DNA from: a virus
Reading direction: 5' to 3' (one strand)
DNA length: 64,000 bases
IMG/VR virus record: IMGVR_UViG_3300015371_000003
Coordinates: 32,001 to 96,000 of that record
The translations under genes and the position numbers were made by a program. Positions 18,686-39,606 of this stretch are shown in pieces. The first letter of the stretch is position 1. The number at the start of each line of letters is the position of its first letter. Under the pieces are notes generated by a model that saw only the letters and a program-made list of their open reading frames with translations, was not told where the DNA came from and made no database searches.

Positions 18686-20707
18686 ATGATGAAGATACCT
18701 GACGGATTCCGGCCAGTTACGCTTGGTGGAATGCTCTCTCATTTTGAGAAGGCGTCTCCGCAATTGGGGCAAATGCTGGCGGACCATCTCAAGCGGCCTA
18801 TCGAAGATGCCTCTGCCACGATTACGCGGCTTGAGGCAATGGGGTTGGTGCAGTTTGCCATTTCCTCCTCCAATGAACCGTCCATCTTCGTCGCGGCTCC
18901 GGAGCGATTTGTGTCAGCGGAGGATCAAGCCTTCGCGGATGCTCTCGTGACGTTCTGGGATGTGACCGGCAAGTTTGACGACAGGGAGGGGCGGATATCC
19001 TCCATTGAAGCGGCGGGGGGTGAGACACGGATTCTGACACCTGACGGCCCGGTGTCCATTGCCCCTCGTGTGGCTCTGAAGCTGTGGAAGATGGGGCTGC
19101 TTACGGAGGACGCAACCGGACAACTGCGAGCCAAGTCGAAGGCACAGTTGTATGCCGCCACCGAAGAAGTGGGTATTTGCGATTTCTGTTCTGATCCGAA
19201 TCCCACGCACACGGTGCTCCTCCCGAGTTTCGAACTAGTACAGGGCCATCGGAGTGAAGGGGGCTGGCGAGCCTGCGAGACGTGCTACCAGATGGTTCAG
19301 CACGATCAACGCACGGATCTGTTGCGGCGGGCGATTGATTCTCAAGGCGGAGGTCGGTGGGTAGCGGCGTCGATCCAAGGGCTGCACAGGCGGTTCTGGA
19401 AGCAGATGGAACTGAAGGTGGAAGCCGCAGGGATTGGATCGGCCCTACTGACTTTCATTAAGGGGGACATCCAACCGGCCCAACCGTTCATTGATCCCAA
19501 AATGCAGCAACAGGAGGCCCGCAAGGAGGCCATCCGGCGCATGACGGGGTTGTCACAGGACGAAATGACGGCGCTTGAACGAGGCGACGTACTTCACAAG
19601 GAGATTGCTCAGAAGCTGGATACATGGCGGCGGCGGTGGTTGCCCGAGAAGGATGACGGCAATGAGGGCCAGCGAGCACAGGCCATTGCGGAGATGCTGA
19701 ATGCCGCAGGGCGTCCACTCCCCCCGAACCTGCAACCCCATTGGCAGATTGCCTTGGACCGCAAGGTGGAGGCGATGGGGCGGCTGGATAAGCTGGTCAA
19801 GGCGGATGGCGGAGTGTTGCAGTTGGGGCACGGGTTGCTCCATGACATGGAAGAAGACTTGTCGGTTCTGAAGCTGGCCGATGTCTATTCCTTCAACGCC
19901 GACACCATGCACGCGATTCAGGAGGGGGCCAAGACGATTTCCCATGAATCCACCTTGAAGTCGGTGGAGATTCCGACCGTGCGGGCGGGGTGGTTTTGGT
20001 TTGCGGATCCGTTCCCGGTAGCGTCGTCTCCGAATTCATCGGATAACACCCATGCCATGCTCTGGTCGTGGGGTAGGGATTTCAAGGTGCCGACGTTGCG
20101 ATTCTCGTGCTACGTGGTGACGGAGAAGGTGCCCTACAACAGCGACCTTCGCAATACCATCTACCCGTCTACTATCTGGTTGTGGCCGATGGATTTGAAT
20201 TTCCATGAGATGCTGGCGTTCAATCGGCAACTGTACAAGGATAGCTACGGGCCGGGAAGCCCGGATTCTCCCGGTAAGGAGGCCGCAGTCGGGGAGGAAC
20301 CGACGCTGTTGGTGGTGGCGGAGATGAGCCTGTTCTTCCTGATGGCCTGTCTCTGGTTCCGACAGACGGTGCCGGGGAATCCTAAGAAGAAGATCGAACC
20401 TAAGCTCACCCAGACACCCGGTCACATTGAACGGCATGCGCGGAAGCGGTATGAGAAGGCGTTCAAGACCACGCCCACCGTGCATGTGATTGCGCTCCGG
20501 AAGTCGGCGGTGGAGCGGGTGGAGTCGGGAGAGGGGACTGGTAGCAAGCTGAAGGTCCGGTTTGTGGTGCGAGGCCACGCGAAGCTGCAACCGTGTGGTC
20601 CGGGGAGAGCCGATAGAAAGTTGATTTGGATTGATCCGTTCGTCAAGGGGCCGGAGGATGCGCCGTTCAAGGAGTCGGGACCACGGGTATTCGCGGTGAT
20701 CAGATGA
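18686..20707 (+). CDS. Large hypothetical phage protein
   Basis: About 673 aa; CDFC…ACETC Zn motif; C-terminal VRGH…QPCG…RKLIWIDPFVKGP motif. Confidence 0.7.
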   Translation: MMKIPDGFRPVTLGGMLSHFEKASPQLGQMLADHLKRPIEDASATITRLEAMGLVQFAISSSNEPSIFVAAPERFVSAEDQAFADALVTFWDVTGKFDDREGRISSIEAAGGETRILTPDGPVSIAPRVALKLWKMGLLTEDATGQLRAKSKAQLYAATEEVGICDFCSDPNPTHTVLLPSFELVQGHRSEGGWRACETCYQMVQHDQRTDLLRRAIDSQGGGRWVAASIQGLHRRFWKQMELKVEAAGIGSALLTFIKGDIQPAQPFIDPKMQQQEARKEAIRRMTGLSQDEMTALERGDVLHKEIAQKLDTWRRRWLPEKDDGNEGQRAQAIAEMLNAAGRPLPPNLQPHWQIALDRKVEAMGRLDKLVKADGGVLQLGHGLLHDMEEDLSVLKLADVYSFNADTMHAIQEGAKTISHESTLKSVEIPTVRAGWFWFADPFPVASSPNSSDNTHAMLWSWGRDFKVPTLRFSCYVVTEKVPYNSDLRNTIYPSTIWLWPMDLNFHEMLAFNRQLYKDSYGPGSPDSPGKEAAVGEEPTLLVVAEMSLFFLMACLWFRQTVPGNPKKKIEPKLTQTPGHIERHARKRYEKAFKTTPTVHVIALRKSAVERVESGEGTGSKLKVRFVVRGHAKLQPCGPGRADRKLIWIDPFVKGPEDAPFKESGPRVFAVIR

Positions 20708-21859: not shown

Positions 21860-23854
21860 ATGCTCAAGTTGACGGACGGCACGCCCCCCAAAGACACTCC
21901 TGAATCCAAGATTACCTTCATCCAGAAGGTGATCAAGGGTGAAACGTGGATGGTGATGGCGCACTCCGCCGTCGAATTAGAGGATGAGTTTTCCAGCCTC
22001 TATTACACGGCAGGGCAGCAGAACAACCTGTTCCTGATGCCCCCGTTCGAACCCAACGTCCTCCTGAACCTCGTCCAGACCAACAACATCCTCAACCAGT
22101 GCATCGAAGCGATGGAAGTGAACATCGATGGCACCGGGCATGAGTTTATTCCGGCGAAGGATAAAGCCTCCGACAAGTCCGCAGGAAAGCCGGGAGCCGA
22201 GGACAACGCTCCGGCACAGTCAGGCATTCCTCCGCCGACATCTTTTGGCAGCATCCGCAAACAGGATGCGACGGCGGATGACATCGATGAGGAGGAGAAG
22301 AAAGTAGCGGAGGGATTCTTCAAAGAACCCTATCCGAACACCTCGTTTGTGTCGATACGCCGGAGAATGCGGCGGCAGATGGAATCGGTGGGCTATGCGT
22401 TCCTCGAAGTACTCCGCAATGTGGCCGGGGACGTAGTAGCTATCCGGAACATTGAAACGCAGCATGTTCGCATGGTGAAGCTGGATGCCCCCATTCAGGT
22501 GAAGAAGAAGATTGAGCGGGACGGGAAAGTCGTGGAACTGGTGCTCTGGGAGCGGGAGCGACGATTTGCACAGACGGTGGCCCTGAAGCAGCAGGTGTAC
22601 TACCGGGAGTATGGGTCCACCCGTGAAATCAACCGGGAAACGGGGGATTGGGAGACGGACACCGAGAAGGTACCGCCGGAGAAGCGGGGATCAGAACTGC
22701 TGATGTTTGGGATCAATCCGGACGTGACCACCCCGTACTTCCTCCCCCGGTGGATCAACGAGTTACCCTCCGTCATCGGTTCCCGAGCGGCGGAGGAACA
22801 GAACCTGCAATTTCTGGATGCGGGTGGTCTGCCTCCGGCCATCGTATTTATCCAAGGCGGCACACTCATCAAGGACACCTCCGACCAACTCCGCATGTAT
22901 TTGTCTGGCCTGAACAAGAACAAGAACCGGGCGGTGGTCGTGGAGGTGCAATCCTCCAGTGGATCACTGGATGCGGCGGGCAAGGTGGATGTGAAAGTCG
23001 AGCGATTCGGTTCTGCCCAATCCCAAGACGCGATGTTCACCAACTACGATGAATCCACCGAGGAGCACGTGCGGATCGGCTTCCGGTTGCCCAAGATTTT
23101 TCTGGGGCGGGAGGAATCCTACAACTTTGCGACGGCACAAGTGGCCTACATGATTGCGGAGGCCCAAGTCTTTGGTCCGGAGCGGGAGGAGTTTGACAAG
23201 ATCATCAACAAGACGATCATCAAGGAACTGAAGCTCAAGACACTGGAATTCAAGTCCAAGCCCATTACCTTGAAGGATGTCACGTCGATTCTGACGGCTC
23301 TGGAATTGTCGGCACCGATGGCAACGCGGGAATCCTTCCTGAAGGAAGTGAATACGTCGGTGGGCACGTCGTTGGAACTGGCGGAAGTCCCGGCCCCGAA
23401 TGTGGCCCCCGGTCAAACGCCGTTGCCGAATACGCGGACCATCGATGAGATGCACCACGGTGAACTGCCCGCGTCTACCCAAACTCCGCAGATGACGGCT
23501 CCGCAACAGGAACCCAAGCCCGAGCCACCACCGAAGGAGACACACGTCATCCTGAAACCGGGGGATGAGATGCACCCAGTGCCCGCCAAGGATGAGACGA
23601 TTCGGGCTAAGCCGAAGGAGAAGAAGGCGGCGAGTGACATCCTGACGCTAGCGCAGGATTACGCCATCTATCAGGGGTTGATGCCCCAACTGGCGATCAA
23701 GCAGGAGTTGACCAAAGAGCGAGCGGATGCTATCAACGAGGAGCTAGACACGCTCCACCCGGATGATGTGCGTGTGTTCAACAGCCTGCTGGCGATGATG
23801 GTGTTTGGATCGGATGACGCGGATCTGTCCTCCGTGATTGCCGCCACCCGGTAA
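21860..23854 (+). CDS. Portal protein (PBSX/XkdE-like)
   Basis: PPFEP..L…CIEAMEVNIDG.G; GYAFLEVLRN..G; YFLPRW…QNLQFLDAGGLPP; QDAMF…IGFRLPKIFLG…YNFATA; first gene of the head module. Confidence 0.85.
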   Translation: MLKLTDGTPPKDTPESKITFIQKVIKGETWMVMAHSAVELEDEFSSLYYTAGQQNNLFLMPPFEPNVLLNLVQTNNILNQCIEAMEVNIDGTGHEFIPAKDKASDKSAGKPGAEDNAPAQSGIPPPTSFGSIRKQDATADDIDEEEKKVAEGFFKEPYPNTSFVSIRRRMRRQMESVGYAFLEVLRNVAGDVVAIRNIETQHVRMVKLDAPIQVKKKIERDGKVVELVLWERERRFAQTVALKQQVYYREYGSTREINRETGDWETDTEKVPPEKRGSELLMFGINPDVTTPYFLPRWINELPSVIGSRAAEEQNLQFLDAGGLPPAIVFIQGGTLIKDTSDQLRMYLSGLNKNKNRAVVVEVQSSSGSLDAAGKVDVKVERFGSAQSQDAMFTNYDESTEEHVRIGFRLPKIFLGREESYNFATAQVAYMIAEAQVFGPEREEFDKIINKTIIKELKLKTLEFKSKPITLKDVTSILTALELSAPMATRESFLKEVNTSVGTSLELAEVPAPNVAPGQTPLPNTRTIDEMHHGELPASTQTPQMTAPQQEPKPEPPPKETHVILKPGDEMHPVPAKDETIRAKPKEKKAASDILTLAQDYAIYQGLMPQLAIKQELTKERADAINEELDTLHPDDVRVFNSLLAMMVFGSDDADLSSVIAATR

Positions 23855-23856
23855 GA

Positions 23857-25373
23857 TGCCGACGCTCGATCTGCGGACGTATGTGCTGTTGGAGCGGGCC
23901 TTTGTCCGGAGGCTCCAACGGTCATGGCGGCAGCAGTCGGCTCCGCTGTACGCGAAGATTGCCCAAGCCTGCAACGACCACAAATGGGATGAAGCCCGCC
24001 GTCTTGTCACCGATCTGGACATGACGGAGGTCGGCACCGAGAACCGCGAGTGGATCACGTACATGCTCCGGTCGTGTGCCGTCTTCGGAGCCGGTACCGT
24101 CTCCAAGAAGAAACCGAGTTTCGTGGGCGTGGGCAGCTTCGATACCTTCCTGAAGCAGACCACGAACAATTTCCTGCAATACCTCGAATTGACCGCCACC
24201 GCTCAGATCCAAGCGGAAGCGTTGCAATCAATTGCCGAAGATGAGGCTAAGACCAAAGCCGCGATGTTGAAGGCGGCATGGGATGAATCCCAACACCCCC
24301 GTGACAAGGAAGGACAGTTCACGGAGGCCGGGGCCGGAACGGAGGCCAAGTCGGGGGATCCCGAAGGCAGTGGCCCCGCCCGTGTGGAATGGAACAAGCG
24401 CAACAAGGCGGTGATGGAAGCGACTGATGTCTATATTGACACCAGAGAAGCCCATCGAGCTTTAGTGGAGCGATTGAACGCTGAATATCAGGCGGAAACC
24501 CCGATGGGGTATCCAGAGGCCGGGTATGCGGCGTACAAGAAATCCCAAGCCACATTGGAGCAGGCCAACCAAGCGTTGGCACAGGCCGAAACTGCGCTGA
24601 AGCAACAAGAACCGCTGATGCGGAAGGAAATCGTCCAGAATCTGGCGACAGACGTAGCCAGTGATTTGGGCGTTGATCCACGTTTGATTGACGTGGTGGA
24701 CGAAGCTCCGCATCCGTTTACGGTTGGAGATAAGCAATTTACCGAGGCGGGGCACTACGATCCGACTACCAAACGCATTCAGTTGAATTCCAACAATATC
24801 TCGTATGCGAATGCCCCCGGAGTCAAGGGGGTGGTAGCCCATGAAATTTCTCATGCGATCTATCACCAGTTGAAGATTGCGGCGGAGGAGGAATTTCAAC
24901 GGTATCTCGTCAAAGCTACGACCGAGGATGCCTATACCCCGTGGTTTCATGAGCGGTTTACCACCGATCCCCATAAAATTGGCCGTCAGGTGAAGCCCGA
25001 GTACGCCAAGGAAATGGCCGAGGAATTTCCGGCGTCTACCGTGCTGGCCCGGTTGAGTGGGGGAGATATTTTCTCCGGTATCACTGATGAGATGATTGCT
25101 GAAAATGGGCATAGTCGGTATGCCAAATCGTACTGGGCCGCTGAAGCCGAGAAACGGATAGGGCTGCGGAATTACCGTAACGCCATCAATGAAACGATAG
25201 CCGAGATTACGCGGTGGTTGGCCTACCCCCGGTCATGGGAGGAGGAGAAGCCACCGGATCTGGATTCTCCGTGGGTCAAGTTGACAGAATCCATGTTGGG
25301 ATGGCATCAACGACAGCAAGCTGAACAGGCGAGGCAGTTTGCCGCGTCTTTGGCGTCGGGGTTCCGAGCATGA
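23857..25373 (+). CDS. MuF N-terminal half + tag + zincin (HExxH) metallopeptidase-like domain
   Basis: Helical head-morphogenesis-like N-terminus right after portal; LKAAWDESQHPRDKEGQF; VAHEISHAI…NETIAE. Confidence 0.6.
24279..24326 (+). repeat. Peptide-coding tag repeat WDESQHPRDKEGQFTE
   Basis: Near-identical peptide at 25550 and 27195, with mostly synonymous DNA differences. Confidence 0.8.
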
Positions 25374-27055
25374 TCCTGCCTGAACCTATCACCCTCAACG
25401 GTCGGACGGGTACCGTCGCCTATCTGGACGCGCAGTGGCATCCAGTCCCGGCGGATCAGGCGACGATGGCGCGAGTCCTGTTCGATGATGGGGGGACTGG
25501 TTTCTTTCAGGTGCAACCGATTGCCAAATCCACTGAAGATGCGGTAAAATGGGATGAGTCCAAACACCCCCGCGATAAAGAGGGGCAATTTACCGAAGGA
25601 GTCGGAGATGGACGAAGTGGTAAGACAACCCCGGAATCTGACAGAGGAGCAGGAGGCAGCGGAGGAGTTGGCGTATCGACGCCCCCCAAAGGGGTGGAAG
25701 CCGCAGGTCAAAAACGCCCCCCCGCCGTCCCCGAAGTCCAAGCCGTAGCGCGGGCGTATAACGCGCAGCACGGACTGCCCCCGGTCGAGCACGGCTATGC
25801 GACGGTGAATGAGGCCCGAGCAGGGGCCATTGCCGATGCCTATGACGCGCTTCCGGTGGATGATACGGATAATCCAGCGGTGCGGGAGGCGTATGCGGCC
25901 CTGAGTCGAGAGATTCAGGAGCAGTGGGATTTCATCACCTCTCACGGGGTGACGTTCGAACCGTGGACTGGAGAGGGACAGCCGTATCAGAATTCGCCGG
26001 AGATGGTGGCGGACATTCAGAAGAACCACCACCTGTATTTCTTCACGGGTGGGGAGCCGCATCCGTTGTTGGGGGCGATTGATCCGGCGACGGGGCTGTC
26101 CATGAACGACAAACTGCGAGCAGTCCATGACTACTTTGGGCATGCCGCAGGCGGCTATGGATTCGGAGCGAGAGGCGAGGAGAATGCGTGGCGGGCGCAT
26201 TCCCAGATGTTCAGCGCCCAAGCGAGACGGGCGATGACGACGGAGACACGCGGGCAGAATTCGTGGGTGAATTTCGGGCGACAGAACTACACGCCTGAGG
26301 GCATCTACAAGAATATTCCCGCCGCCGAGCGTCCGTATGCGGTGCAGAAGGTGGCGATTCTCCCCGATGTGTACGTGGTCTTGGAGCATGGTGGAGTCCT
26401 GAAATGGGAGGAGTCACAGCATCCACGGGTGCCGGGAGGGGAGCATGGCGGAGAGTTTACGCGAGTCGCCATTACGAGTCAGCGACCGGCGGATGACCCC
26501 GGCCATCAGACCAATCGGGAAGTGTTTGAGCACATGCGCGTGTTTGCAGGCCGATTGGCAGCCATCCCCGGCGTGACCAACGTGTCGGTGAAGCCCGGAG
26601 TCGGGGGGTGGGACGGCGGAGCCGAATCGATGTGGCAAGTGTTCTATCGGGGGAATGGTGAAGCTACGCGGTTGGTGGCGATGACGGCCAAGCACTTCAA
26701 TCAGGATGCGGTGTTGATCCTTAAGAAGTGTCAGGGTGGAGCGGATTGTCAGCCCGCTACGGAATTGCATTTCTCCAAGGGGATTGGCGGGAAGGTTCGT
26801 GTGGGCGTCGAGAAAGTACTGGTTGAGCATAAGATTAAGGGCTGGACGTGGATGAAGCGCGACGGACGGACCATTCTTCGAATGGTGGCGATTCCCGAAG
26901 AAGGGGATGATCCGGTCACGCATCAGCAGACGACAGCGGTGATTAGTCAGCAGTTGCGGGATAAGGGCTTGATGAACAAACGGCACGTGCAAAAGGTGGC
27001 CGTGAGTATGATGCGGCGTGAAGGACCAAACAGTTATGACCGAATCCTTGGATAA
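25370..27055 (+). CDS. Tagged two-module cargo protein (HDxxGH…EE zincin-like domain plus unknown domain)
   Basis: AVKWDESKHPRDKEGQF; RAVHDYFGH…GEENAW…TETRGQNSWVNFG; second tag VLKWEESQHPR…GGEF. Confidence 0.65.
   Translation: MILPEPITLNGRTGTVAYLDAQWHPVPADQATMARVLFDDGGTGFFQVQPIAKSTEDAVKWDESKHPRDKEGQFTEGVGDGRSGKTTPESDRGAGGSGGVGVSTPPKGVEAAGQKRPPAVPEVQAVARAYNAQHGLPPVEHGYATVNEARAGAIADAYDALPVDDTDNPAVREAYAALSREIQEQWDFITSHGVTFEPWTGEGQPYQNSPEMVADIQKNHHLYFFTGGEPHPLLGAIDPATGLSMNDKLRAVHDYFGHAAGGYGFGARGEENAWRAHSQMFSAQARRAMTTETRGQNSWVNFGRQNYTPEGIYKNIPAAERPYAVQKVAILPDVYVVLEHGGVLKWEESQHPRVPGGEHGGEFTRVAITSQRPADDPGHQTNREVFEHMRVFAGRLAAIPGVTNVSVKPGVGGWDGGAESMWQVFYRGNGEATRLVAMTAKHFNQDAVLILKKCQGGADCQPATELHFSKGIGGKVRVGVEKVLVEHKIKGWTWMKRDGRTILRMVAIPEEGDDPVTHQQTTAVISQQLRDKGLMNKRHVQKVAVSMMRREGPNSYDRILG
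25547..25597 (+). repeat. Tag repeat KWDESKHPRDKEGQFTE
   Basis: See 24279. Confidence 0.8.
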
Positions 27056-28232
27056 GGCGTTACAGGAATTGGAACAGCTTGTGGCAGAAGAAGCCGCGTC
27101 ATCGGACACGGGTGAAGATTTGCCAGAGTATGATCCGCTGCCTGAAGACGATGACGATGTGTCAGTCACGTTTCTGGCTGGTCCTGCGGTGAAATGGGAT
27201 CCATCCAAGCACCCGCGTGACAAAGAGGGGCAGTTCACGGACACCGTAGGCACCATCCGAGGAGTGGTTCGCACCACCGCTGAACAGGCCCGCCGGGATC
27301 TGGTCGCACTCGGGAAGAAGGTGGAGCAGTTAGACCACCGTCATGCGAAAGCCGCCGAGGAATCGCGGGTAGCGTGGGCGGCGTTCATGAAAGACGCACG
27401 GGAGCGGAAACGTCCCCTGAAGATTGACGGGGCGGCGGCGAAGAAATTGCCGTCCTACAAAGCCGCGCAAGCCGCCGATGCCAAGGTCATCGCCATTTCC
27501 GAGGAGACATCCCGAGTCGCCAGAGAAGTCAACAAAGAAGCGTTACGACAACTCGTGGTGCCGGAACGGGAGCGGTCCCTTGTGGAGTTTCTGGTTCCCG
27601 AGGGGCAATTGAATCCGGATCCACGGATTGAAGCTGGAATTGGCGACCACGCGAAGCGAGCGTTGGATGTCTTCCGCAAGTACGATGGGTCCGGGGAGTT
27701 GATGGGCGTCCCCATTCCACCGGGGAAAGAAGAACAGTTCAAAGAGATTTTTGGGGACGTGGAGTTTGAACATCTGCCGGATGGAAGTACGTGGGTGACG
27801 AAGAAGCTCCGGTTGACGCGGGCACCGGCTGGTGCGCGGGCCAATGCGTCGGCGTTTGGGGTACAAATTGGTGGGACTCGTGAGTTGGAGCGGACCATCT
27901 ATCACGAGGTGGCGCACCATGTGGAGTTTGCCAACTCGGACATTTATCAGGCCGCTGTGGATCTGCGGGCTTCGCTTGCCAGCGAGTCTACGCCCAAGTC
28001 CTTGAATGACTTGAAGGGCGTGGGTGGGTATGGACCCGAAGAAATTGCGCTGCCGGGAAAATTTCTCGATTCGTATGTGGGCAAGGTCTATCCGGAGGAT
28101 GCACGGGCCACAGAAATGTTGTCCACCGGGATGGAGTACTATCTGACGGACCCGATTCGATTTGCCCGAGAAGCCCCCGAGCATTTCAAGTTTGTGTGGA
28201 ACGTGATGCACGGGAAGTATCGGAGGAAGTAA
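27036..28232 (+). CDS. Tagged zincin (HExxH) metallopeptidase-like protein
   Basis: Acidic leader, AVKWDPSKHPRDKEGQF, IYHEVAHHVE…YVGKVY…TEMLSTGME. Confidence 0.65.
   Translation: MTESLDKALQELEQLVAEEAASSDTGEDLPEYDPLPEDDDDVSVTFLAGPAVKWDPSKHPRDKEGQFTDTVGTIRGVVRTTAEQARRDLVALGKKVEQLDHRHAKAAEESRVAWAAFMKDARERKRPLKIDGAAAKKLPSYKAAQAADAKVIAISEETSRVAREVNKEALRQLVVPERERSLVEFLVPEGQLNPDPRIEAGIGDHAKRALDVFRKYDGSGELMGVPIPPGKEEQFKEIFGDVEFEHLPDGSTWVTKKLRLTRAPAGARANASAFGVQIGGTRELERTIYHEVAHHVEFANSDIYQAAVDLRASLASESTPKSLNDLKGVGGYGPEEIALPGKFLDSYVGKVYPEDARATEMLSTGMEYYLTDPIRFAREAPEHFKFVWNVMHGKYRRK
27192..27242 (+). repeat. Tag repeat KWDPSKHPRDKEGQFTD
   Basis: See 24279. Confidence 0.8.
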
Positions 28233-28459
28233 TGGTGGAAGTCGAAGTGTACGGCGAACGAGCACGGTGCCAAAACGGGGTGTGGACGGCGGAGAGTCAG
28301 GCGCTGACGGATCTGCTGAACGCTCCGTGGAATCAGCCGGATGCCTTCCGGTATCGGCTGGATCCGGATATCGATGCGGCGGAGCACGTCGTGAAGACGA
28401 TGGGCGCACAGGTGATTTCCACCGAACCCCCGCCCACTGAACCCGGCGTGGTGTACTGA
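28232..28459 (+). CDS. Small acidic protein (candidate partner/immunity protein)
   Basis: TAATG-coupled to the zincin gene, SD ggagg, 75 aa. Confidence 0.55.
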   Translation: MVEVEVYGERARCQNGVWTAESQALTDLLNAPWNQPDAFRYRLDPDIDAAEHVVKTMGAQVISTEPPPTEPGVVY

Positions 28460-28472
28460 CGAAACCTTAGGA

Positions 28473-28490
28473 GTTGCACTTGAGTGCAAC
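28473..28490. promoter_or_regulatory. Perfect inverted repeat GTTGCACT-TG-AGTGCAAC (operator-like)
   Basis: 8-bp inverted repeat in the gap before the kinase gene; related boxes occur elsewhere. Confidence 0.6.
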
Positions 28491-28502
28491 GGAGCAACGC
28501 CG

Positions 28503-30311
28503 ATGCGGTCGTACCGAGACATTCTCCGGGGGGCATTGCGTTACGTCCACATCCTCAAGTGGGATGAGTCTAAAATTCACCGTAATCCTGCCGGGAGTCC
28601 GGGTAGTTCCGGGGGGCAGTTTGCGAAGATGGGGATGCGGGGGAGTGCGTATGGCACGGCTCCGGTGCCCTCCTCTGAAGCTATTGCCCGTATGCCAAGT
28701 GGGGCACCGGAAGCGATGGCCCACATGCGACGGGCGGGCCTGATCGCACAGCAGGATCGGGAGAAGTATCAGGAATTAGCCGCAGCGGAATCCCAAGCGG
28801 TGCGTCAAGGCGGCGGCGTGGCCGGATGGCGGTCGAGGGATAAAGCCGCAGAGCGGTACAAGGATGTGCTGATCAACCGCCCCCGTGCGGAGAATTTCGA
28901 ACCACCTCCTCCCCCACCCCCAGAACCCACACCAGTACTCACGTCTGGCAGTGCCACCAGTGTCGTGAAGAAATTGGGCGGCAGTTCGAATGCCTGCTAC
29001 GTCGTCCAGATGGAGGATGGTTCCAAAGCCTTCTTCAAACCGGAAGCCGGGGAGACGTGGGAAGCCGGGTTCTGCAACAACGACATTTCCACCTACATCA
29101 CCAATAAAGACTTTTCACTGGCGGAGCGGGAAGCCACCGCACATGAAGTGTCTATCGCGTTGGGGTTTGGGGAGTTGGTGCCGGAAACCCATCTCCGTGA
29201 ACACTTCGACGTGCCGGGGATCGATCTAGCCACCGATGATGAATCCGGCGGCGGTTACGATGAAGACTACGTGCGGAGCCTCTACAACCAGTACCATGAA
29301 AAAGCCCAAGAAAAGGCTTTTGATGAGGCTGGTGAGGAGATGGCGAATCAGTACTATGATGCTCAGCAGGAGCATTTGAGGGATGTCAAGAATCGCGCCG
29401 AGGAAATGACGGATATCTGGAATGAGGTAATTAAGGAATTTCCAGATGGTCCGGACTACGGATCACAGTCGGCGTTGCAAGAACATCCTCGTCTCCCGCT
29501 TGGGTCACAGCACTTCAGCCGCCCCCCGCAGGTCGGGGTGGTTGATCCACTGGACGTGTTGAAAGAAGCGGATGTGGACATCTCGGCGGCGATGAACAAT
29601 GAGGAGCGAGAACGGGTTGCGGACGTGTTCCGTGATCGGTTGAAAGCCGGTCATCAGGAACTAGGCGATGTGGACGAGGAAGCCGCCAAAGACGATCTGG
29701 ATCGGGATCAGTGGTACGAGGATCACCAAAATACCGAGGCACGGTTAATCGAAAGCAAAATTCAGTCGTTTGATTCGTGGCGGCATAGTCAGGGTTACGA
29801 CAGCGGCGATCAAGGAGGGGGCGGCAACGTCTTCAAGAATTCCGAGGCTCCTCATCCTCACGGCGGATCCCTGCAACGGTGGTTAAACAGCGGAGGCCGC
29901 GATGGGGATATGACCCATGAGGAGGCCACGCAATTTGCGGTGCTCGATTATGTGTTGGGCACGATGGATCGGCACGGCAACAACATCATGTTCTCCGGTG
30001 GGAAAGCCTACGCCATTGATAACGGTTATGCCTTCCCCGGCCCGGATACGCCCGATGGGTTTACTTACCGGTCAGATGCCGTACGGGAGTGGATGGGGGA
30101 TGACCAACACCGCGAAGTCCCCGAAAGCACCCGGAATGAAATCTTGGGAGCGATGAATCGGACGGACTGGAAAGCCTTGGTAGACCGTCACCCGAGCATG
30201 AGCCGGGAAGAACGGCAGTCGTTTCTGGACCGGGTGGACAAGATGAAAGAAGCCCTGTCCTACGCCGAGGGGTTGTCCACCCTCTGGCATGACCAGCAAT
30301 TGATGTATTGA
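28503..30311 (+). CDS. Tagged PI3K/PI4K/HipA-like kinase with a large acidic insert
   Basis: YVHILKWDESKIHR…GGQF tag; GGSSN…KAFFKPE; EREATAHEVS…VPET; LDYVLGTMDRHGNNIM…AIDNGYAF. Confidence 0.8.
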   Translation: MRSYRDILRGALRYVHILKWDESKIHRNPAGSPGSSGGQFAKMGMRGSAYGTAPVPSSEAIARMPSGAPEAMAHMRRAGLIAQQDREKYQELAAAESQAVRQGGGVAGWRSRDKAAERYKDVLINRPRAENFEPPPPPPPEPTPVLTSGSATSVVKKLGGSSNACYVVQMEDGSKAFFKPEAGETWEAGFCNNDISTYITNKDFSLAEREATAHEVSIALGFGELVPETHLREHFDVPGIDLATDDESGGGYDEDYVRSLYNQYHEKAQEKAFDEAGEEMANQYYDAQQEHLRDVKNRAEEMTDIWNEVIKEFPDGPDYGSQSALQEHPRLPLGSQHFSRPPQVGVVDPLDVLKEADVDISAAMNNEERERVADVFRDRLKAGHQELGDVDEEAAKDDLDRDQWYEDHQNTEARLIESKIQSFDSWRHSQGYDSGDQGGGGNVFKNSEAPHPHGGSLQRWLNSGGRDGDMTHEEATQFAVLDYVLGTMDRHGNNIMFSGGKAYAIDNGYAFPGPDTPDGFTYRSDAVREWMGDDQHREVPESTRNEILGAMNRTDWKALVDRHPSMSREERQSFLDRVDKMKEALSYAEGLSTLWHDQQLMY

Positions 30312-30314
30312 AAC

Positions 30315-30343
30315 TTGACATATCCACCATTTGGTGGTAAACT
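30315..30343 (+). promoter_or_regulatory. sigma70-type promoter TTGACA-17-TAAACT
   Basis: Perfect -35 and TG-extended -10 between the kinase and the small downstream gene. Confidence 0.7.
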
Positions 30344-30363
30344 TACTACATGGGGGGTGTGTG

Positions 30364-30588
30364 ATGCACGTGGAATTGCTGGATGTTTCGTCAGGAAATG
30401 AGGAAGTGTACGGCACCGTCCGGATGGACAACGGACAGGTGGTAGTCGAAGGGGACGTGCCCGCCCGTGTCAAACGAGATATCGAATTCGAGCGGCGGCA
30501 CACCGATGTCGGGGACGAAGCGTTTCTTCTGCGCCTTGAACAGCGGGTGTTCACAGGCCGGTATCTGCGGGCGCGATTCGTGAAATAA
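30364..30588 (+). CDS. Small protein with its own promoter (candidate kinase antitoxin/immunity protein)
   Basis: 74 aa, immediately after the kinase gene. Confidence 0.55.
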   Translation: MHVELLDVSSGNEEVYGTVRMDNGQVVVEGDVPARVKRDIEFERRHTDVGDEAFLLRLEQRVFTGRYLRARFVK

Positions 30589-30594
30589 TCCCCC

Positions 30595-33500
30595 ATGCTC
30601 CGTATCCACCCGCCGAAGGTGCAACCCATTGCACCCTCCCTTCTTGAAGTCCTGAAGTTTGATCCGAGTGAACCTCGTGATCCTCACGGACGATGGACGA
30701 CTTTCGGCGCGTCCATTCGAGTTGGGGACCGAGAGATTGCCGTAGTCAAACCAGCCCGCGCCAGAGACGATCAACTGGTCCCCCTGAACGTCGTCGCATT
30801 TGATACCGAATTTCAGCGGGAGCAGGGGTTTTATCTGGGCGTCGGTGGAATTGGGGGGATCGGCACCCGCTACCAACGTTTCGGGGACTTCATTGCCTCT
30901 CATGACAGCATCGAAGCGGCGGAAGTGTCCGTGCAGGAGAACGGGCGCGTGGGTTTCACCAACGGACGCCACCGGTATGCGTGGCTCCGTGATCAAGGAT
31001 TGACCACCATTCCCGTAGCCATGACCCCGGAGTCAGTCAGGAACGCCAAGAAGCATGGGTATCTGGCGGCGGTCAAGCTGGCGTGGGATGAGAGCCAACC
31101 TCGTGACGCTAAAGGACGGTGGGCAAAAGGATCAGCAGAACCTCCACCAGTCGGTCCACGTATTGGATTTGTGGGGCCGGATGGGAAGGAGCATGTTGGA
31201 CGTAAGACGGGGGGATTAGGAGGGTATTCCGAAGATCACACGGACACGGCTCGCCGGTTACTAGATAAGGAATACTCCACGGCACTGAGTCAGGCGCAAG
31301 CACGTGGTGGGGATTACCCAAATGCCATTCGTTTGATGTTGGAACAAGGAGCCATTCGGTATTGGGTGCGGAACGGGGAGATTGCGCTGCATTTTCAAGC
31401 AGGCCACCCAAAGACCGTCGAACACGTCATTCAATTTCTGCATGACAATTTTCAGGATGGGGATCGCATTTATATCGACATCGAAGGGGCCGAACCGCAT
31501 GTGCATTTTTTCGATAATGTCGGAGCCGCGAATCGTACTATTCGTCAGACAAAGCCACTCAAGAAGGTGGCGCAAGAGCATTCCTACGGCAACACCCAGA
31601 TTCAAATTGCTCCGACCAGTGCCGCCGCACTTTCTCTGAATATGGCCCGTGCTGCCATCCGCGATGAACATTGCATGGCAACCGGCAAGGATGTGGATCC
31701 GAACCATGTGACGGTGCGCTTCGGCCTCCTGAACGATGATCTGGATGGTCTGCGGTCGTTTATTGTCCGTCAACAGTCCTTCGAAGCTGAGGTCGGAGAG
31801 ATTGAACTATTCCCGGCCAGTGAGCACAGCGATGGAGCCGTGCCCGTCGTGGCCCGCATCGTCAGTCCCGAGTTGCATGCCATCGAAGCGGAGATAGGGC
31901 AGTATGCCGACTTCAAGGATAAGAATTTCCCCGAGTACAAACCCCATTGCACCCTTGCCTACGTCCACCCGGACAAAGCGGATTACTACCGTGATCTGTT
32001 CGTCAACGGATCGTTCGTGGTGCAGAGCATTACCATCAGTCATGCCTCCGGGGTGCAGGAGACGATCCCCTTCGGGATGGCCCAGAAGTGGGACGTGACG
32101 AAGCGGGATGGCAAGAGCACCCGCTTTCATAATCGTCCGCATTGGGCCGAGAGCCTACACCCACGTCAGCCTGCGGGATCTTCTCGCGGCGGCGAATTCA
32201 TGTCCACGTTGCATGGTCCTAGAGATGCGTTGGATTCTCTGCTCAACAAAGAGAAGAACGTCAGCATTGACCGGAATGATGTCCGTCGCTTTCTCGAATT
32301 AGCCGGGGAGCAACTGGAAGATCCGGACCTCACCGATTTGCAAGTCGAGGGGATGGAGATTTTTGGGGGCAATGGTCTGGGCATCAAACGTGATCAGATG
32401 CCGCAGATTCCCCGTGAGCATCGGCAACGATTTTTGAGAGAGTTGGTGGCGGCGGGTGTCAAGATTACGGAGGAGTCCGTCGATCCCCTCACCCTGAAAC
32501 CCACCCAGAAGGAAATCTCCGCCCGCCGGGTGATGGAGAAGATTACCAAGTACGAAACCAAGAACAAAGCCTTTCCTCCCCTCCTCGTCTCTCTGGATGA
32601 CCGAGTATTAGACGGCCATCATCATTGGGGCATGATGGCGGCATTTGCGCTGGATGTACCGGAGGCCAAGGTGCCCATCTTCCGGTTGCACATCAAGACC
32701 AAAGCCGCCTTGTCCATGATGCACGCTTACATGCGAAAGCACCACATCAAGCGGGCGTCGATTACCGGGGAGAAGATTGCAGCGGATCCAGTCACAGGAC
32801 GCTACGTTACACCTTTCGTCTCTTTCGAAAAACAAGGCGATGAACAACTCCGGATGATCGCCAGTCTCAATTCCAGCCGGTTGGCGACGTGGGGATTCAC
32901 GGCAGAGGCCGAAGTCTTGGGGATGGCCCGGTACAAGTTGACCGCTGTACTGGACGGTCGCACCAGCAAATTCTGCCGGATGATCAACGGACATATCTTC
33001 GACGTGCCGGATGCCCGCCGCAAGGTGATCGAAGCCCTGAACGTCCAAGACCCGAACGACTTGAAGACGGTGCAGCCGTGGCCCAAGCAAACCAAGGAGG
33101 CGATGGCTGAGTACGCCAAGATGAGTCCACAGGATTTTGTGGATCGGGGACTGCACATTCCTCCGTATCATCCCCACTGCCGCACGCTCCTCCGCCATGT
33201 GCAATCAAGTGCAGGGAAAGCCACCGAACCTCCGGTCCCCACCCTCCCTGATGACACCGAGGTGTTCCATCCGATCACCCAAGCGGACTTGAAAGAGTTG
33301 GGGGTGGAGGCCACGCCCGAAGAAGTTGCGTGGTGGAACAGTCAGATTGGGATGAGTCCCACGGAGTTGATCGCCAAGCTCACCGGCATGCCGCCCCAAG
33401 AAATTCTGACCAAGGGCAAAGGCATCGGAGCCAATCCTATTCGCTTCGATGAGGGGGGCGCGGGGAACATCGGCGTCCGAGCCAGAGGCGAACTACCGAG

Positions 33501-34002
33501 CGGCGTGGAATTCGCCATGGGCGCGATTCTCGATCCGTTCACAGGCATTTTCTACTTGTCAGAAGCCGCACTGGAAGTCGGAACACCAGCGGCAGAAATC
33601 TCGTTTCTCAAGAATCTGTTCTCGGAGATGATCAATACCGGCCTTCGCACGTCAGCGACCGAAGTGGCGGTGGGCGTGGCCGGGAATGCGGCGTATTATG
33701 CGAAACTCGGTTTCCTCCCCGATGATTTGGAGTGGGAGACGCTACGCACGCATACGTTGACGGAGCTAGAGAGCGGTGGATTGCAGGAGATGTTTCAGTC
33801 CTTGGCCCCGCTGGATCAGGAACTGGTGAAGCATCTGTTGCAGGATCAATCCGCGTCAGCCCTTTCCGCATTGGTGGATCTGCCATTCACCTACGAAGGC
33901 CGTACATTCGGAGAGTGGATGCTGGAAGATGCGGGCGGGACGTGGGGATTGGATCTGACGGATGAGGCGGTAGTGAACCAAGCGAAAGCCTACCTGTCAT
34001 GA
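30595..34002 (+). CDS. Polyvalent minor head protein: tag-ParB-like, tag-unknown, 2H phosphoesterase, tag-ParB/Srx, MuF domain, GNAT-like C-terminus
   Basis: NGRHR; HVTV…PHCTL (2H); LKPTQ…LDGHHHW; TAVLDGRTSKFCR…PPYHPHCRT (MuF/SPP1 gp7); AYYAKLGF. Confidence 0.75.
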   Translation: MLRIHPPKVQPIAPSLLEVLKFDPSEPRDPHGRWTTFGASIRVGDREIAVVKPARARDDQLVPLNVVAFDTEFQREQGFYLGVGGIGGIGTRYQRFGDFIASHDSIEAAEVSVQENGRVGFTNGRHRYAWLRDQGLTTIPVAMTPESVRNAKKHGYLAAVKLAWDESQPRDAKGRWAKGSAEPPPVGPRIGFVGPDGKEHVGRKTGGLGGYSEDHTDTARRLLDKEYSTALSQAQARGGDYPNAIRLMLEQGAIRYWVRNGEIALHFQAGHPKTVEHVIQFLHDNFQDGDRIYIDIEGAEPHVHFFDNVGAANRTIRQTKPLKKVAQEHSYGNTQIQIAPTSAAALSLNMARAAIRDEHCMATGKDVDPNHVTVRFGLLNDDLDGLRSFIVRQQSFEAEVGEIELFPASEHSDGAVPVVARIVSPELHAIEAEIGQYADFKDKNFPEYKPHCTLAYVHPDKADYYRDLFVNGSFVVQSITISHASGVQETIPFGMAQKWDVTKRDGKSTRFHNRPHWAESLHPRQPAGSSRGGEFMSTLHGPRDALDSLLNKEKNVSIDRNDVRRFLELAGEQLEDPDLTDLQVEGMEIFGGNGLGIKRDQMPQIPREHRQRFLRELVAAGVKITEESVDPLTLKPTQKEISARRVMEKITKYETKNKAFPPLLVSLDDRVLDGHHHWGMMAAFALDVPEAKVPIFRLHIKTKAALSMMHAYMRKHHIKRASITGEKIAADPVTGRYVTPFVSFEKQGDEQLRMIASLNSSRLATWGFTAEAEVLGMARYKLTAVLDGRTSKFCRMINGHIFDVPDARRKVIEALNVQDPNDLKTVQPWPKQTKEAMAEYAKMSPQDFVDRGLHIPPYHPHCRTLLRHVQSSAGKATEPPVPTLPDDTEVFHPITQADLKELGVEATPEEVAWWNSQIGMSPTELIAKLTGMPPQEILTKGKGIGANPIRFDEGGAGNIGVRARGELPSGVEFAMGAILDPFTGIFYLSEAALEVGTPAAEISFLKNLFSEMINTGLRTSATEVAVGVAGNAAYYAKLGFLPDDLEWETLRTHTLTELESGGLQEMFQSLAPLDQELVKHLLQDQSASALSALVDLPFTYEGRTFGEWMLEDAGGTWGLDLTDEAVVNQAKAYLS

Positions 34003-35076: not shown

Positions 35077-36153
35077 ATGCCGATTACGGAAGGCTTTACC
35101 ACACGGGGGATGGTCGCCAAAAGTGGCTACTCGTGTGTCGGTCCCCCCAAGCAAGGGCACATGGAGAAGCGGGGGCACCAGAAGAAACGGAAAGCCGCCT
35201 CCTATCTGGGGGTGTTGAAGTTTGATGAAAGTGCGGTCAATCGCCAACCAGCGGGTGCTCCCGGTAGCAAAGGCGGAGAATTCGCCCCGAAAGGTCAAGG
35301 ATTTAAGGGGAGTACCGGCAGCAGAACTGGTAAAGATTTGACGCCCGCTCAGCGAGCCATGCAGCGGACGTTGAAGGAACAGAGCCGCAAGCGCATCCAT
35401 AAAGTGGACACCCCCGAACAAGGGGTGGCGCTGATTCTCAAGGGCGAACGGGTGGAATTACGGGACACCAAAGATGTTCACACGGTCCTCAAAGAACTAG
35501 GCGAGATGGCGATCAAAGCCAAGGAAGCCTGTGGCGGGAAGGAACCGTGTGAAGGCGTCCCCAATTTCGATCCCTGTCTGGTGACGGTCAAAGGCACCAG
35601 CTTGTTTTGCTCTGAAAAACTCAAAACGAAAGAATTTCCTCACGGGATTCCGCGTATTGAGATGCCGCAGTTCAAGTCCAAGAATCCCGTGCCGGGGAGC
35701 GAAGCCGATAAACTGCCCCGTGATGCCAACGGAGAAGTGGATGCTACGGATGCGTTTCTCAAGCATCTGGATGAAGCAGGTGTGAAAACAAATTCGTATG
35801 ACACCGTGCTTGCCCGCAAATTGAAGGCGAGTCAGGCGGAGATGGAAGGCGCGAAAGTCGCCGCCATGATGCTGTCGTCACGGGATCCCAAGAAAGCCCG
35901 TATTGTGGTGTCGGCAGACAACTACGTGGTGGATGGGCACCACACGTGGGCCGCGTCGGTGGGCCGGGATGCTGAGGACGGCAATCTGGACAACGACAAA
36001 GAAATGGAAGTGGTCCGGATCAATCTGCCGATGTCCGACATCTATCAGTTGGCGGTGGAGTGGACCAAGACTTTTGGCATGCCGCAAGCCGGTATCAAAA
36101 AGCGTGATTGGTTGAGGGCTGTGCTCACCTTCGGGCAGGCGTCTCTCAACTGA
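35077..36153 (+). CDS. Tagged ParB/Srx-like domain protein
   Basis: MPITEGFTTR leader; YLGVLKFDES…GGEF; GIPRIEMPQF…LKASQ…IVVSADNYVVDGHHTWAA. Confidence 0.7.
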   Translation: MPITEGFTTRGMVAKSGYSCVGPPKQGHMEKRGHQKKRKAASYLGVLKFDESAVNRQPAGAPGSKGGEFAPKGQGFKGSTGSRTGKDLTPAQRAMQRTLKEQSRKRIHKVDTPEQGVALILKGERVELRDTKDVHTVLKELGEMAIKAKEACGGKEPCEGVPNFDPCLVTVKGTSLFCSEKLKTKEFPHGIPRIEMPQFKSKNPVPGSEADKLPRDANGEVDATDAFLKHLDEAGVKTNSYDTVLARKLKASQAEMEGAKVAAMMLSSRDPKKARIVVSADNYVVDGHHTWAASVGRDAEDGNLDNDKEMEVVRINLPMSDIYQLAVEWTKTFGMPQAGIKKRDWLRAVLTFGQASLN

Positions 36154-36164
36154 ATGGAGAGCCT

Positions 36165-36905
36165 ATGCCAACAAGACAGGTACTGATTCAGGGCATCATG
36201 ACGTGGGATGAGCCGACACAGCCTCAGCCCCCGAGTGGTGCTCACCCGGAGCATCCGATCTTCTATCCACCGGGGATCTGGGGACCGACCGATCCTCGTC
36301 CTTCGAATCCGATTGCCAACGTTCCCGGTATCAGCAATCCCAATCCTCCGGGGTGGGGTCAGCGACCGGAACATCCCATCGTGCTGCCTCCTCCGGGTGG
36401 TGGCGGTGGGACTCCTCCGGGGATCTGGGGGGGAGGCAATCAGCCGTTCCCCACGCCCCCGATTGCCAATGTGCCGGGGATCGACAATCCCAATCCTCCG
36501 GGCTGGCAACCGCCGGGGATCTGGGGTCCACCGGGACCGTGGCCCACTCCGCCGATTGCGTTTCCGCCCGGATGGGTAGGAGGCGTACCACCCGGTGGGG
36601 GGACTCCGCCGTCCGGTGCTCATCCGGAGCATCCCATCGTGCTGCCGCCGAACGTGCCGCCATCAGGACCGGGAGGTCCGAGCGGAGGCGTTCCGACGCA
36701 TCCCATCGGTGGGGTGCAAGGTCCAGCCGGGATGTTCGTGTGGTACTGGTCCCCGGCATGGGGGTGGTTCGCAGTGCCTGCGAGCGGGCCGATTCAGCCG
36801 CCGCAACAGCCACCGACGCAGCCTCCGACCGAGCCGCCGTTACCGGGAGATATTCCGCATCCGGAGCATCCGATTGTGCTGCCGCCGGAAGCGGAGCCGA
36901 AGTAG
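36165..36905 (+). CDS. Pro/Gly-rich repeat protein
   Basis: PEHPIxxPP x4, PGIWG x3, PIANVPGIxNPNPPGW x2; SD ggag. Confidence 0.65.
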   Translation: MPTRQVLIQGIMTWDEPTQPQPPSGAHPEHPIFYPPGIWGPTDPRPSNPIANVPGISNPNPPGWGQRPEHPIVLPPPGGGGGTPPGIWGGGNQPFPTPPIANVPGIDNPNPPGWQPPGIWGPPGPWPTPPIAFPPGWVGGVPPGGGTPPSGAHPEHPIVLPPNVPPSGPGGPSGGVPTHPIGGVQGPAGMFVWYWSPAWGWFAVPASGPIQPPQQPPTQPPTEPPLPGDIPHPEHPIVLPPEAEPK

Positions 36906-36919
36906 CAGGGGAGGGGCGT

Positions 36920-37516
36920 ATGCCGAAACCAAAACACAAGGCACTCGTGATCAAGAACGAAGAAGCACAACTTGTGTTTGGGGAGGTGTACGCCCCGAAC
37001 CGTCCCGACGCGCAAGGTGAGTACATGACGGCCACGGACATTCAGAAGATGGCCCATGAATTCATCCGGTCAGGCAAGATGGGTCAGATTGATGTGATGC
37101 ACGGGAACAAAGTGGTGACGGGCGCGAGTGTGGTTGAGTCCTTCGTGGCGGATGACACGGATTCCCGCTTCCTGCCCGGTTCGTGGGTGATCGGTGTCCA
37201 CATTCCCGATCCTCAACTCTGGTCTGCCATCAAGAAGGGTGAAATCAACGGCTTCAGCATGGAAGCCTTGGTGACACGCCATGAGATGGATGTGGAAGTC
37301 GAAATTCCTCCGGTGGTCACAGGCTTGACCAGTAAGCATGACGATCATCAACACAAATTTTTCGTCGCCTACGACCAAAAAGGGGAATTCAAAGGCGGTG
37401 TGACGGATACGGTCAATGGGCATTTCCATGCGATTGTCGCCGGGACACATACTCAGGATGCCGCAGGCCACCGTCACCGCTTTTCTAGCGTTGATAACGT
37501 GCGGATTCTAGGGTAG
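36920..37516 (+). CDS. XkdF-like prohead serine protease with a His-rich tail
   Basis: LVFGEVYAPNRPDAQGE…IDVMH…VVESF…GSWVIG…WSAIKKGEINGFSME; C-terminal HxH repeats. Confidence 0.85.
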   Translation: MPKPKHKALVIKNEEAQLVFGEVYAPNRPDAQGEYMTATDIQKMAHEFIRSGKMGQIDVMHGNKVVTGASVVESFVADDTDSRFLPGSWVIGVHIPDPQLWSAIKKGEINGFSMEALVTRHEMDVEVEIPPVVTGLTSKHDDHQHKFFVAYDQKGEFKGGVTDTVNGHFHAIVAGTHTQDAAGHRHRFSSVDNVRILG

Positions 37517-37526
37517 TCTTGCACAC

Positions 37527-38621: not shown

Positions 38622-38661
38622 ATCACGGTTCACCGGCAGTTCTTTTTGGTAAGGAGCAGAC

Positions 38662-39606
38662 ATGACGAATCAGGAAGTGATCATCCAGAAAGCTGATCTG
38701 GCGCTGAGTGATCTGGCGACCGCCGGGAAGCTGAATCCCGAGCAGACCGACCGGTTCATTCGGACGCTGATCGATCAGCCGACGTTGCTCGCCTCTGTCC
38801 GCACGGTGGCGATGGGCGCTCCGCAGATGAAGATCAACAAGATCGGATTCGGGAGCCGCATTCTGCACCCGGCAGTCAGCGCCACCCCGCTGCCTGACAA
38901 CCTCCGCTCGAAACCCGATCTGGGTCAGGTCCAACTCGAAACCGCCGAAGTCATCGCGGAAGTTCACATTCCGTACGATGTCATCGAGGACAACATCGAG
39001 AAGGGCAACGTCAACGTGCCGATGCAAACCGGCGCGGGCGGATTGCATCAGACCATCGTGGACCTGATGGCGGAACGGGCGGCTCTCGATCTGGAGGAAC
39101 TTGCCATTCAGGGCGATACCACCAACGTGGGGGATCCCTATCTGGCCCTTCAGGACGGGTACCTGAAGATGGCGACGGCGAACGTCGTCAACGTCGGGGG
39201 CGCGTTCGACAAGACGGCGGTCAAACAGGCGCTCAAGACGATGCCCACCCGGTACCTCCGGAACCGGAGTGCCATGTCGCACTTCGTCTCCGTGGACAAC
39301 GAGACGGAAATCCGTGACCAGTACGGCGCACGGCAGACGGCACTCGGGGATCAGCAGTTGCAGGGGCTGCTGCCCGTTTACATCTACGGTTCGAAGGTCG
39401 TGCCGGTTGCCATGATGTTGGGCACCAGCGGGCTGTTCACCGATCCGATGAACCTGATCTTCGGGATCCAGCGCAACATCATGATCGAGTACGACAAGGA
39501 CATCCGGGCGCGGGTGTTCATCATCGTGCTGACGGCCCGCATCGACTTCGCCATCGAAGAAGCGAACGCCGTCGTCAAGTACACCGGCATCACCGGAAGC
39601 CGGTAG
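38662..39606 (+). CDS. Major capsid protein (XkdG/HK97-fold)
   Basis: GKLNPEQTDRFI…IEDNIE…DLEELAIQGD…NLIFGIQRNI…ARIDFAIEE; strongly biased codons; SD aaggag. Confidence 0.9.
   Translation: MTNQEVIIQKADLALSDLATAGKLNPEQTDRFIRTLIDQPTLLASVRTVAMGAPQMKINKIGFGSRILHPAVSATPLPDNLRSKPDLGQVQLETAEVIAEVHIPYDVIEDNIEKGNVNVPMQTGAGGLHQTIVDLMAERAALDLEELAIQGDTTNVGDPYLALQDGYLKMATANVVNVGGAFDKTAVKQALKTMPTRYLRNRSAMSHFVSVDNETEIRDQYGARQTALGDQQLQGLLPVYIYGSKVVPVAMMLGTSGLFTDPMNLIFGIQRNIMIEYDKDIRARVFIIVLTARIDFAIEEANAVVKYTGITGSR

Follow-up and report, generated by a model that had tools for sequence, protein, structure and literature searches.

We analysed a 64,000-nucleotide (nt) window, bases 32001–96000 of the IMG/VR virus record IMGVR_UViG_3300015371_000003, which is a complete genome of 116,229 bp from an uncultured phage, with direct terminal repeats, and found a minor head protein of the MuF family encoded there by two separate genes. 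The N-terminal part (N-half) begins the open reading frame (ORF) that follows the portal gene (ORF1), and the C-terminal part (C-half), consisting of the MuF core and a C-terminal domain, starts at 32773 inside the 1135-residue ORF5, leaving a gap of 8,494 nt (24279–32772) filled with putative cargo. This arrangement is probably a derived fission of the MuF-family protein at an internal hot spot for cargo insertion. The homology of the halves, a common insertion site, a graded series of inserted forms and the nesting of the split clade make a strong case for this evolutionary claim, as judged by sequence comparison. The split region lies within the head module, with the portal upstream and protease, scaffold and capsid genes downstream (36914–39606), and contains five large and two small plus-strand ORFs.

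The original prediction, made from this DNA alone, had described a helical N-half running into a peptide tag (HPR tag), with the MuF core some 8.5 kb away. This was borne out, with the start corrected from 23857 to the ATG at 23856, 2 nt past the portal stop codon (TAA, 23852–23854). The N-half ends immediately before the sequence W-D-E-S-Q-H-P-R at 24279 and the C-half begins K-I-A-A-D-P-V-T-G-R-Y-V; the N-terminal region and the core are therefore not in one polypeptide here. A 534-node profile built from 61 uninterrupted homologues matched the genome at just two places, nodes 2–135 in ORF1 (E = 3.8e-44) and nodes ~139–533 in ORF5 (E = 2.4e-141), and the similarity of both parts to the family is far beyond chance. 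The complete genome holds exactly one copy of the N-half and one of the core, and the core motifs D-G-R-T-S-x-F-C-R and P-P-x-H-P-x-C-R occur in it once. Minor-head-protein PHROGs matched the core at 3.6e-8 to 2.8e-6, always over profile positions 160–300, indicating that typical family members have 150–250 residues before the core. The N-half alone had no match in PHROG, NCBIfam or Pfam and no usable match in the ESM Atlas.

The search for uninterrupted homologues beside portal genes, which the original prediction had proposed, found the N-half contiguous with the core in cultured phages. A tblastn search of the N-half against a cultured-phage collection recovered four records and no others, all from the three Stenotrophomonas phages DLP_3, DLP_5 and Summit; in each the match was the gene after the portal, and a search with the core recovered the same gene. 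Residues 1–141 of the DLP_3 protein (DLP3_002; 445 amino acids, aa) align to ORF1 residues 10–147 (35% identity; E = 2e-21) and residues 145–411 to ORF5 residues 736–995 (40% identity; E = 3e-56), the latter match spanning the MuF core (ORF5 736–872), with three residues between the two matches. Vibrio phage PG28 also encodes about 166 N-terminal residues and the core in a single gene after the portal. This synteny, with the N-half next to the portal, is the same in DLP_3, PG28 and 21 related IMG/VR loci.

The least-interrupted homologue was searched against 1.84 billion representative proteins, giving 1,429 relatives at E ≤0.001, and 188 retrieved proteins were classified with models that we built for the N-half, the core and the C-terminal domain (190 rows including ORF1 and ORF5 of the window). 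The halves were separated by 25 residues or fewer in 75 rows (the standard form of ~530 aa), by 26–100 residues in six, by 101–300 residues in 27, mostly with a 2H/Acb1-like domain of ~175 residues, and by more than 300 residues in 19, reaching 1,488 residues in a protein of 1,972 aa. The N-half stood by itself in 37 rows, the core in 24 and the C-terminal domain in two; 13 of the core-only proteins carried long N-terminal cargo and were placed in the split clade, like ORF5. Inserts of 28–1488 residues were thus present at the same site in 52 of the 188 family proteins, and the domains inserted in single chains included 2H/Acb1, topoisomerase IB, ART-PolyVal, ADPrib_exo_Tox and DUF3626. All inserts share one insertion point, between an N-half ending ...I-A-E-D-E... 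and a core starting K-A-[DE]...G-R-[FY]-V-T-P-F. Together with DLP3_002, the profile and the trees, this survey upholds the earlier proposal of an ancestral contiguous MuF gene that received cargo at one internal site, leaving the halves on separate ORFs with cargo fused to each. One uninterrupted relative (P0106) has a strong match to Acb1, an inhibitor of the cyclic oligonucleotide-based antiphage signalling system (anti-CBASS), at residues 610–752 (2.7e-35) directly before the MuF core, and also carries an ADPrib_exo_Tox domain.

The junction itself did not look as had been predicted. The segment before the core had been taken for a degenerate HPR tag and the ancestral gene for one with a tag at its junction; we rejected a decayed tag, since the same segment is present in uninterrupted homologues that have no tags, and the ancestral gene accordingly had no HPR tag there. 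Standard tag-less forms read V-x-K-A-[DE] and, 0–8 residues later, R-[FY]-V; the lysine, located in a disordered loop, is nearly invariant. Judged by these relatives, the K-I-A-A-D-P-V-T-G-R-Y-V of the window is the ancestral start of the core. Among 71 distinct family tags, the position before the tag (−1) is K in 49 and A in 16, so that K-[WF]-[DE] at the head of the tag resembles K-A-[DE] at the junction. The parallel fits, and does not prove, a common cleavage site for the XkdF-type protease or for the zincins. The HPR tag copies are 70–81% identical at the nucleotide level with mostly synonymous differences, which indicates that the peptide is under selection, and on the same grounds a recent DNA duplication of the tags was rejected. 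A target-site duplication was also rejected for a 19-nt repeat that codes K-T-K-A-A on either side of the island (24249 and 32695; 89% identity). The repeat looks like chance: 19-nt pairs just as good are numerous in the 13 kb containing it, and the profile alignment over the ORF5 stretch in question has low posterior values.

Trees of both halves placed the split forms inside the uninterrupted ones. In the FastTree phylogeny of the core and C-terminal domain (127 rows), 13 of 14 split forms made up one clade (Shimodaira-Hasegawa-like support 100) beside a 1,331-aa inserted form, within a group rich in inserted forms, and the deeper branches were filled by standard forms. The N-half tree, for which Vibrio phage PG28 served as root, united 31 of 34 split forms in one clade (98); this clade lies within a set that includes inserted forms, which in turn lies within standard forms. 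The split and contiguous states required 2–3 changes on the trees and the insert states 15–26, indicating many separate uses of the insertion site. The nesting of the split clade inside inserted forms is strong evidence, within the reach of these alignments, that the split is the derived state. The opposite polarity, in which two genes were ancestral and the uninterrupted proteins are later fusions (a Rosetta-stone case), draws on the trees having no independent rooting, the root of the core tree being just a midpoint. We regard it as very improbable, because in both trees the split forms are a single shallow clade (end branches 0.0–0.3) within deep and diverse uninterrupted forms, the cultured relatives are all uninterrupted, and the junction loop lies inside one helical bundle and not between two domains.

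The same organization was found in 21 IMG/VR loci with N-halves 63–84% identical to that of the window. Each locus with enough sequence has one N-half and one core on different ORFs, two of the records being complete, and the halves in relatives are 71–84% identical to the window's. Across ten records the halves are separated by 3.05, 4.7, 5.6, 8.5, 9.6, 10.8, 12.2, 13.0 and ~15 kb, the last distance spanning the ends of one record. The modules between these conserved bookends vary in presence, order and identity (25–75%). A 2H/Acb1-like module stands directly after the N-half in three loci (L018, L022, L023), whereas in L012, L020 and the window it immediately precedes the core or is one module removed from it; the ORF break thus falls on either side of the oldest insert. 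The recovery of the same bookends from separate metagenome assemblies, with differing ORF numbers and contents, excludes an assembly artefact and marks the island as hypervariable. That the split reflects mis-assembly, sequencing frameshifts or a giant polyprotein made by programmed frameshifting is hardly credible in any case: the tight packing, with an ATGA overlap of ORF1 and ORF2 and a 38-nt overlap of ORF2 and ORF3, would suit it, whereas the gaps of 270 nt (ORF3/ORF4) and 283 nt (ORF4/ORF5) have stops in all frames, and the record is complete, with terminal repeats.

Structure prediction placed the junction within a single structural unit. The AlphaFold2 model of the uninterrupted homologue P0046 (61 sequences) had a mean predicted local distance difference test (pLDDT) of 91.9 and a predicted template modelling score of 0.78, and its sole stretch with pLDDT <50, residues 132–144, is exactly the junction. 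The N-half helices and the helix that opens the core half, together residues 1–178, align as a single helical bundle; its matches are generic (best Z 10.0 to a designed bundle; root-mean-square deviation 5.6 over 167 aligned residues). With the junction a loop in one bundle, the split would cut within a structural unit and not through a linker of independent domains. The C-terminal domain (P0046 325–531) is weakly GNAT-like (Z 6–6.7), its matches including the anti-CRISPR acetyltransferase AcrVA5 (Z 6.2). No solved relative was found by Protein Data Bank sequence search (best E 0.18) or Foldseek (nothing at E ≤0.001), and a wide structural search returned only generic helical bundles and weak GNAT matches, with no solved MuF-like fold among them, an outcome that does not argue for a new fold.

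Co-folding of the two halves, also proposed at the outset, gave 0.80 for the window N-half (141 aa) against the core and C-terminal domain (409 aa), compared to 0.00 for the best of three controls. Of 80 solved complexes 58 reached the mark, as did 2 of 110 mismatched pairs, counts that are rough since our own alignments were used. At least 51% of contacts agreed between runs, and partner pLDDT was at least 80. The predicted interface is formed by ORF5 residues 741–785 and most of the N-half, and in it two invariant glycines meet, G78 of the N-half and G41 of the core half. Neither sequence comparison nor Foldseek retrieved a solved complex resembling it. In uninterrupted forms the predicted interface is more conserved than the rest (entropy 2.28 vs 2.69; P = 0.0046). 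The co-fold supports binding of the halves, as a model prediction, without showing it. The halves could instead have parted functionally, the N-half acting as a stand-alone portal-linked carrier with polymorphic C-terminal cargo, comparable to the N-terminal trafficking domain of polymorphic toxins, and the core working by itself with no mutual binding. The cargo on N-half ORFs of relatives is indeed very diverse (ART-PolyVal, Topo IB, Tpt1-like, ADPrib_exo_Tox, zincin), the predicted interface of the split clade is not significantly more conserved than the rest (0.62 vs 0.72; P = 0.19, in a clade too shallow for the comparison), and inserts of up to 1488 residues imply that the covalent link is very tolerant. 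We nevertheless consider such a parting unlikely, given the co-fold result with its contacting invariant glycines, the modelled role of the first core-half helix in completing the N-terminal bundle, which would leave a lone N-half incomplete, and the retention of exactly one copy of each half in every record examined.

Several observations weigh against fission followed by re-association. The window core scored below the cut-offs of both general MuF models (PF04233, E = 0.0018, 19.4 bits against 29.6; TIGR01641, 7.6e-8, 32.7 bits against 39.65); we treat it as a divergent MuF relative in view of the PHROG matches and of same-family homologues that pass PF04233 (P0047, 30.3 bits) or carry it in precomputed annotation (P0036, P0039, P0040). 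Inserted and split forms were both lacking among the cultured phages of the collection. The trees were made with FastTree only, that of the N-half from few columns and that of the core with its midpoint root. A co-fold is a test that halves of split genes are apt to pass, and both alignments included the same uninterrupted proteins; the conservation of the interface, as noted, did not extend significantly to the split clade. Finally, ORFs 2–4 and 7 have no MuF part, and the model leaves their loading unexplained.

Under the fission model, the protein in its usual form of ~530 aa, encoded after the portal, would have six N-terminal helices that form one bundle with the first helix of the core half, joined to it by a short disordered loop. 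That loop would have become the site where effector modules were added (2H/Acb1-like, ADP-ribosyltransferases, topoisomerase IB, ParB-like, zincins and kinase-like), first within one polypeptide and then, in one clade, broken into several ORFs. The window would be the extreme state, with the N-half, a tag and a zincin on ORF1, four cargo modules followed by the core half on ORF5, and 8.5 kb with three further cargo genes between the halves. The halves would re-associate non-covalently and rebuild the bundle, and the rebuilt MuF unit would enter the procapsid via the portal, bringing both cargo chains, in the manner of SPP1 gp7, which is carried into the procapsid by the portal in a few copies (PMC6316719). 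The lysine-headed tags would then be where cargo is released, with either the XkdF-type protease or the zincins doing the cutting; given such cleavage, the halves would no longer need their covalent link, and fission would cost almost nothing. A more specific version, tentative and clearly less likely than the fission itself, is that the loop is a dedicated cargo socket with maturation cleavage sites, in which K-A-[DE] and K-[WF]-[DE] are one kind of protease site. Modules would be freed in the capsid while the MuF halves stay clamped non-covalently, and the halves would be bookends that co-load two polyvalent chains at the portal and frame a 3–15 kb recombination island of pre-packaged anti-defence enzymes. 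This would explain the tolerance of any insert size and even of gene fission.

The features of the split region and its surroundings are listed in Table 1. A homologue of the zincin module terminates the N-half ORF in most relatives, the modules of ORF2 vary in presence and absence among relatives, and ORF4 is kept at 43–49% identity in eight related loci (L003 to L017). The cargo region of ORF5 (residues 1–726) has the order tag, ParB/PFIN-like, tag, unassigned, 2H phosphoesterase (Acb1-like), tag, ParB-like. The two small ORFs fill the island's only two intergenic gaps, one behind the second zincin gene and the other behind the kinase-like gene; the 87-aa ORF had no counterpart in relatives at the thresholds used, and the products of both may be partner or immunity-like proteins.

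Table 1. Features of the split MuF-family gene, its cargo and neighbouring head genes (window coordinates).
Feature	Position	Strand	Evidence or remark
Portal gene, 664 aa	21860..23854	+	43% identity (3e-179) to annotated portal of Stenotrophomonas phage DLP_3; PF04860 match weak
N-half of MuF-family head protein, ORF1 residues 1–141, helical	23856..24278	+	Profile nodes 2–135, 3.8e-44; 35% identity to DLP3_002 1–141
First HPR tag, W-D-E-S-Q-H-P-R-D-K-E-G-Q-F-T-E, directly after N-half	24279..24326	+	Motif scan
Cargo fused to N-half: helical region and zincin-like metallopeptidase (H-E-x-x-H)	24327..25373	+	PF04298 1.3e-4, PF10263 8e-4, both below cut-off
Cargo ORF2, 561 aa, two tags	25370..27055	+	Start overlaps ORF1 stop as ATGA
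Cargo ORF3, 404 aa, one tag, second H-E-x-x-H zincin-like motif	27018..28232	+	No Pfam match
Small ORF, 87 aa, in gap after ORF3	28196..28459	+	No Pfam match
Cargo ORF4, 602 aa, one long-form tag, PI3/PI4-kinase-like domain	28503..30311	+	PF00454 3.7e-8, 34 bits, above cut-off
Small ORF, 85 aa, in gap after ORF4	30331..30588	+	Copies of 37–45% identity in L003, L010, L017
ORF5 N-terminal cargo, residues 1–726	30595..32772	+	PF13563 5.4e-6, PF23474 1.5e-3, PF22162 5.2e-4, phrog_2859 2e-31
C-half part 1, ORF5 727–872: ancestral junction motif, predicted bundle-completing helix, MuF core	32773..33210	+	PF04233, TIGR01641, PHROG; profile nodes ~139–270
C-half part 2: C-terminal domain, ~265 aa, weakly GNAT-like	33211..34002	+	Profile nodes up to 533
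Tagged cargo gene ORF7, ParB-like, outside split	35077..36153	+	Tag by motif scan; weak similarity to ORF5 ParB-like module in relatives
Prohead protease, XkdF type	36914..37516	+	PF14550 1.9e-24, 86.5 bits

The protease gene is followed by a scaffold-sized and a capsid-sized ORF. Just upstream of it, a 265-aa ORF (36108–36905, +) with no Pfam match contains two 42-nt direct repeats (36309–36350 and 36459–36500; 86% identity) 150 nt apart. Upstream of the portal, at the place expected for the large terminase, a 674-aa ORF (18683–20707, +) gave a weak DUF2250 match only and matched none of the terminase Pfam families. A further 1086-aa ORF (15016–18276, +) is family-A DNA polymerase-like, with an apparent intein-like insert amid the polymerase motifs, a Cys-led block ending H-N-T as read from the translation alone. 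The tyrosine integrase family PF00589 was unmatched in the complete genome, serine integrases and other lysogeny genes not having been searched for.

The closest cultured counterpart, DLP3_002 (QIN95165.1, annotated as 'ParB-like nuclease domain protein', with counterparts in DLP_5 and Summit), is homologous over its N-terminal 141 residues and the core and follows a portal of 43% identity; it differs from the window in being a single 445-aa chain with no insert at the junction, C-terminal ParB-like cargo and no HPR tags. The GNAT-like C-terminal domain is absent from DLP_3, with the ParB-like domain in its place. The MuF/SPP1 gp7 family (PF04233, TIGR01641) shares with the window its core motifs and the gene position after the portal, but its members are single polypeptides, whereas the window's part upstream of the Pfam core is on another ORF, 8.5 kb away. 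The MuF polymorphic toxins of temperate phages, found in prophages, have an N-terminal MuF, one variable C-terminal toxin and immunity genes (Jamet et al., 2017; PMC5576092). In both cases a MuF module carries variable enzymatic domains, probably for delivery together with the DNA (PMC5576092), although the cargo in the window is internal, multi-module and multi-ORF, and a conserved, weakly GNAT-like domain follows the core. Phage polyvalent proteins (Iyer, Burroughs, Anand, de Souza and Aravind, 2017) are described as effector strings (zincin, ART, ParB, 2H, MuF hubs) among late virion genes, with processing by a zincin peptidase proposed (PMC5512222). The window agrees with this description in having at least two effector domains per chain (ParB/PFIN-like, 2H, ParB-like and MuF in ORF5; the N-half and a zincin in ORF1) and in its location among late virion genes, from the portal at 21860 to the capsid genes. 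The original statement that published MuF toxins carry C-terminal cargo holds for PMC5576092 and PMC5512222, and the passages of PMC5512222 that were consulted describe neither cargo nested within a MuF-family protein nor fission into bookend genes. The arrangement in the window is a variation on MuF-fused and polyvalent phage cargo. No description of an internally loaded or split MuF was found in the literature covered, most subscription journals being outside that coverage.

The textbook carriers of enzymes injected by tailed phages along with their DNA are MuF-type proteins, and the cargo has been described as a C-terminal add-on. In phage T4, the internal proteins and Alt are head-loaded enzymes with a capsid-targeting sequence, released through cleavage by the prohead protease gp21. 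They serve as a working analogy for the tagged modules, although the sequences are unrelated and a MuF carrier is absent. The present finding adds a second, internal loading site within the carrier's own fold, used by 52 of the 188 surveyed family proteins. The site holds up to 15 kb (~13% of a genome) of exchangeable effectors, including Acb1-like, ADP-ribosyltransferase and topoisomerase modules. The split is also a natural case of a structural phage protein surviving division into two genes, which suggests that the covalent link is dispensable after assembly. The conserved bookends offer easy handles for searching metagenomes for new capsid-carried anti-defence enzymes, and the permissive loop is a candidate site for cargo engineering in cultured relatives such as the Stenotrophomonas phages DLP_3 and DLP_5.

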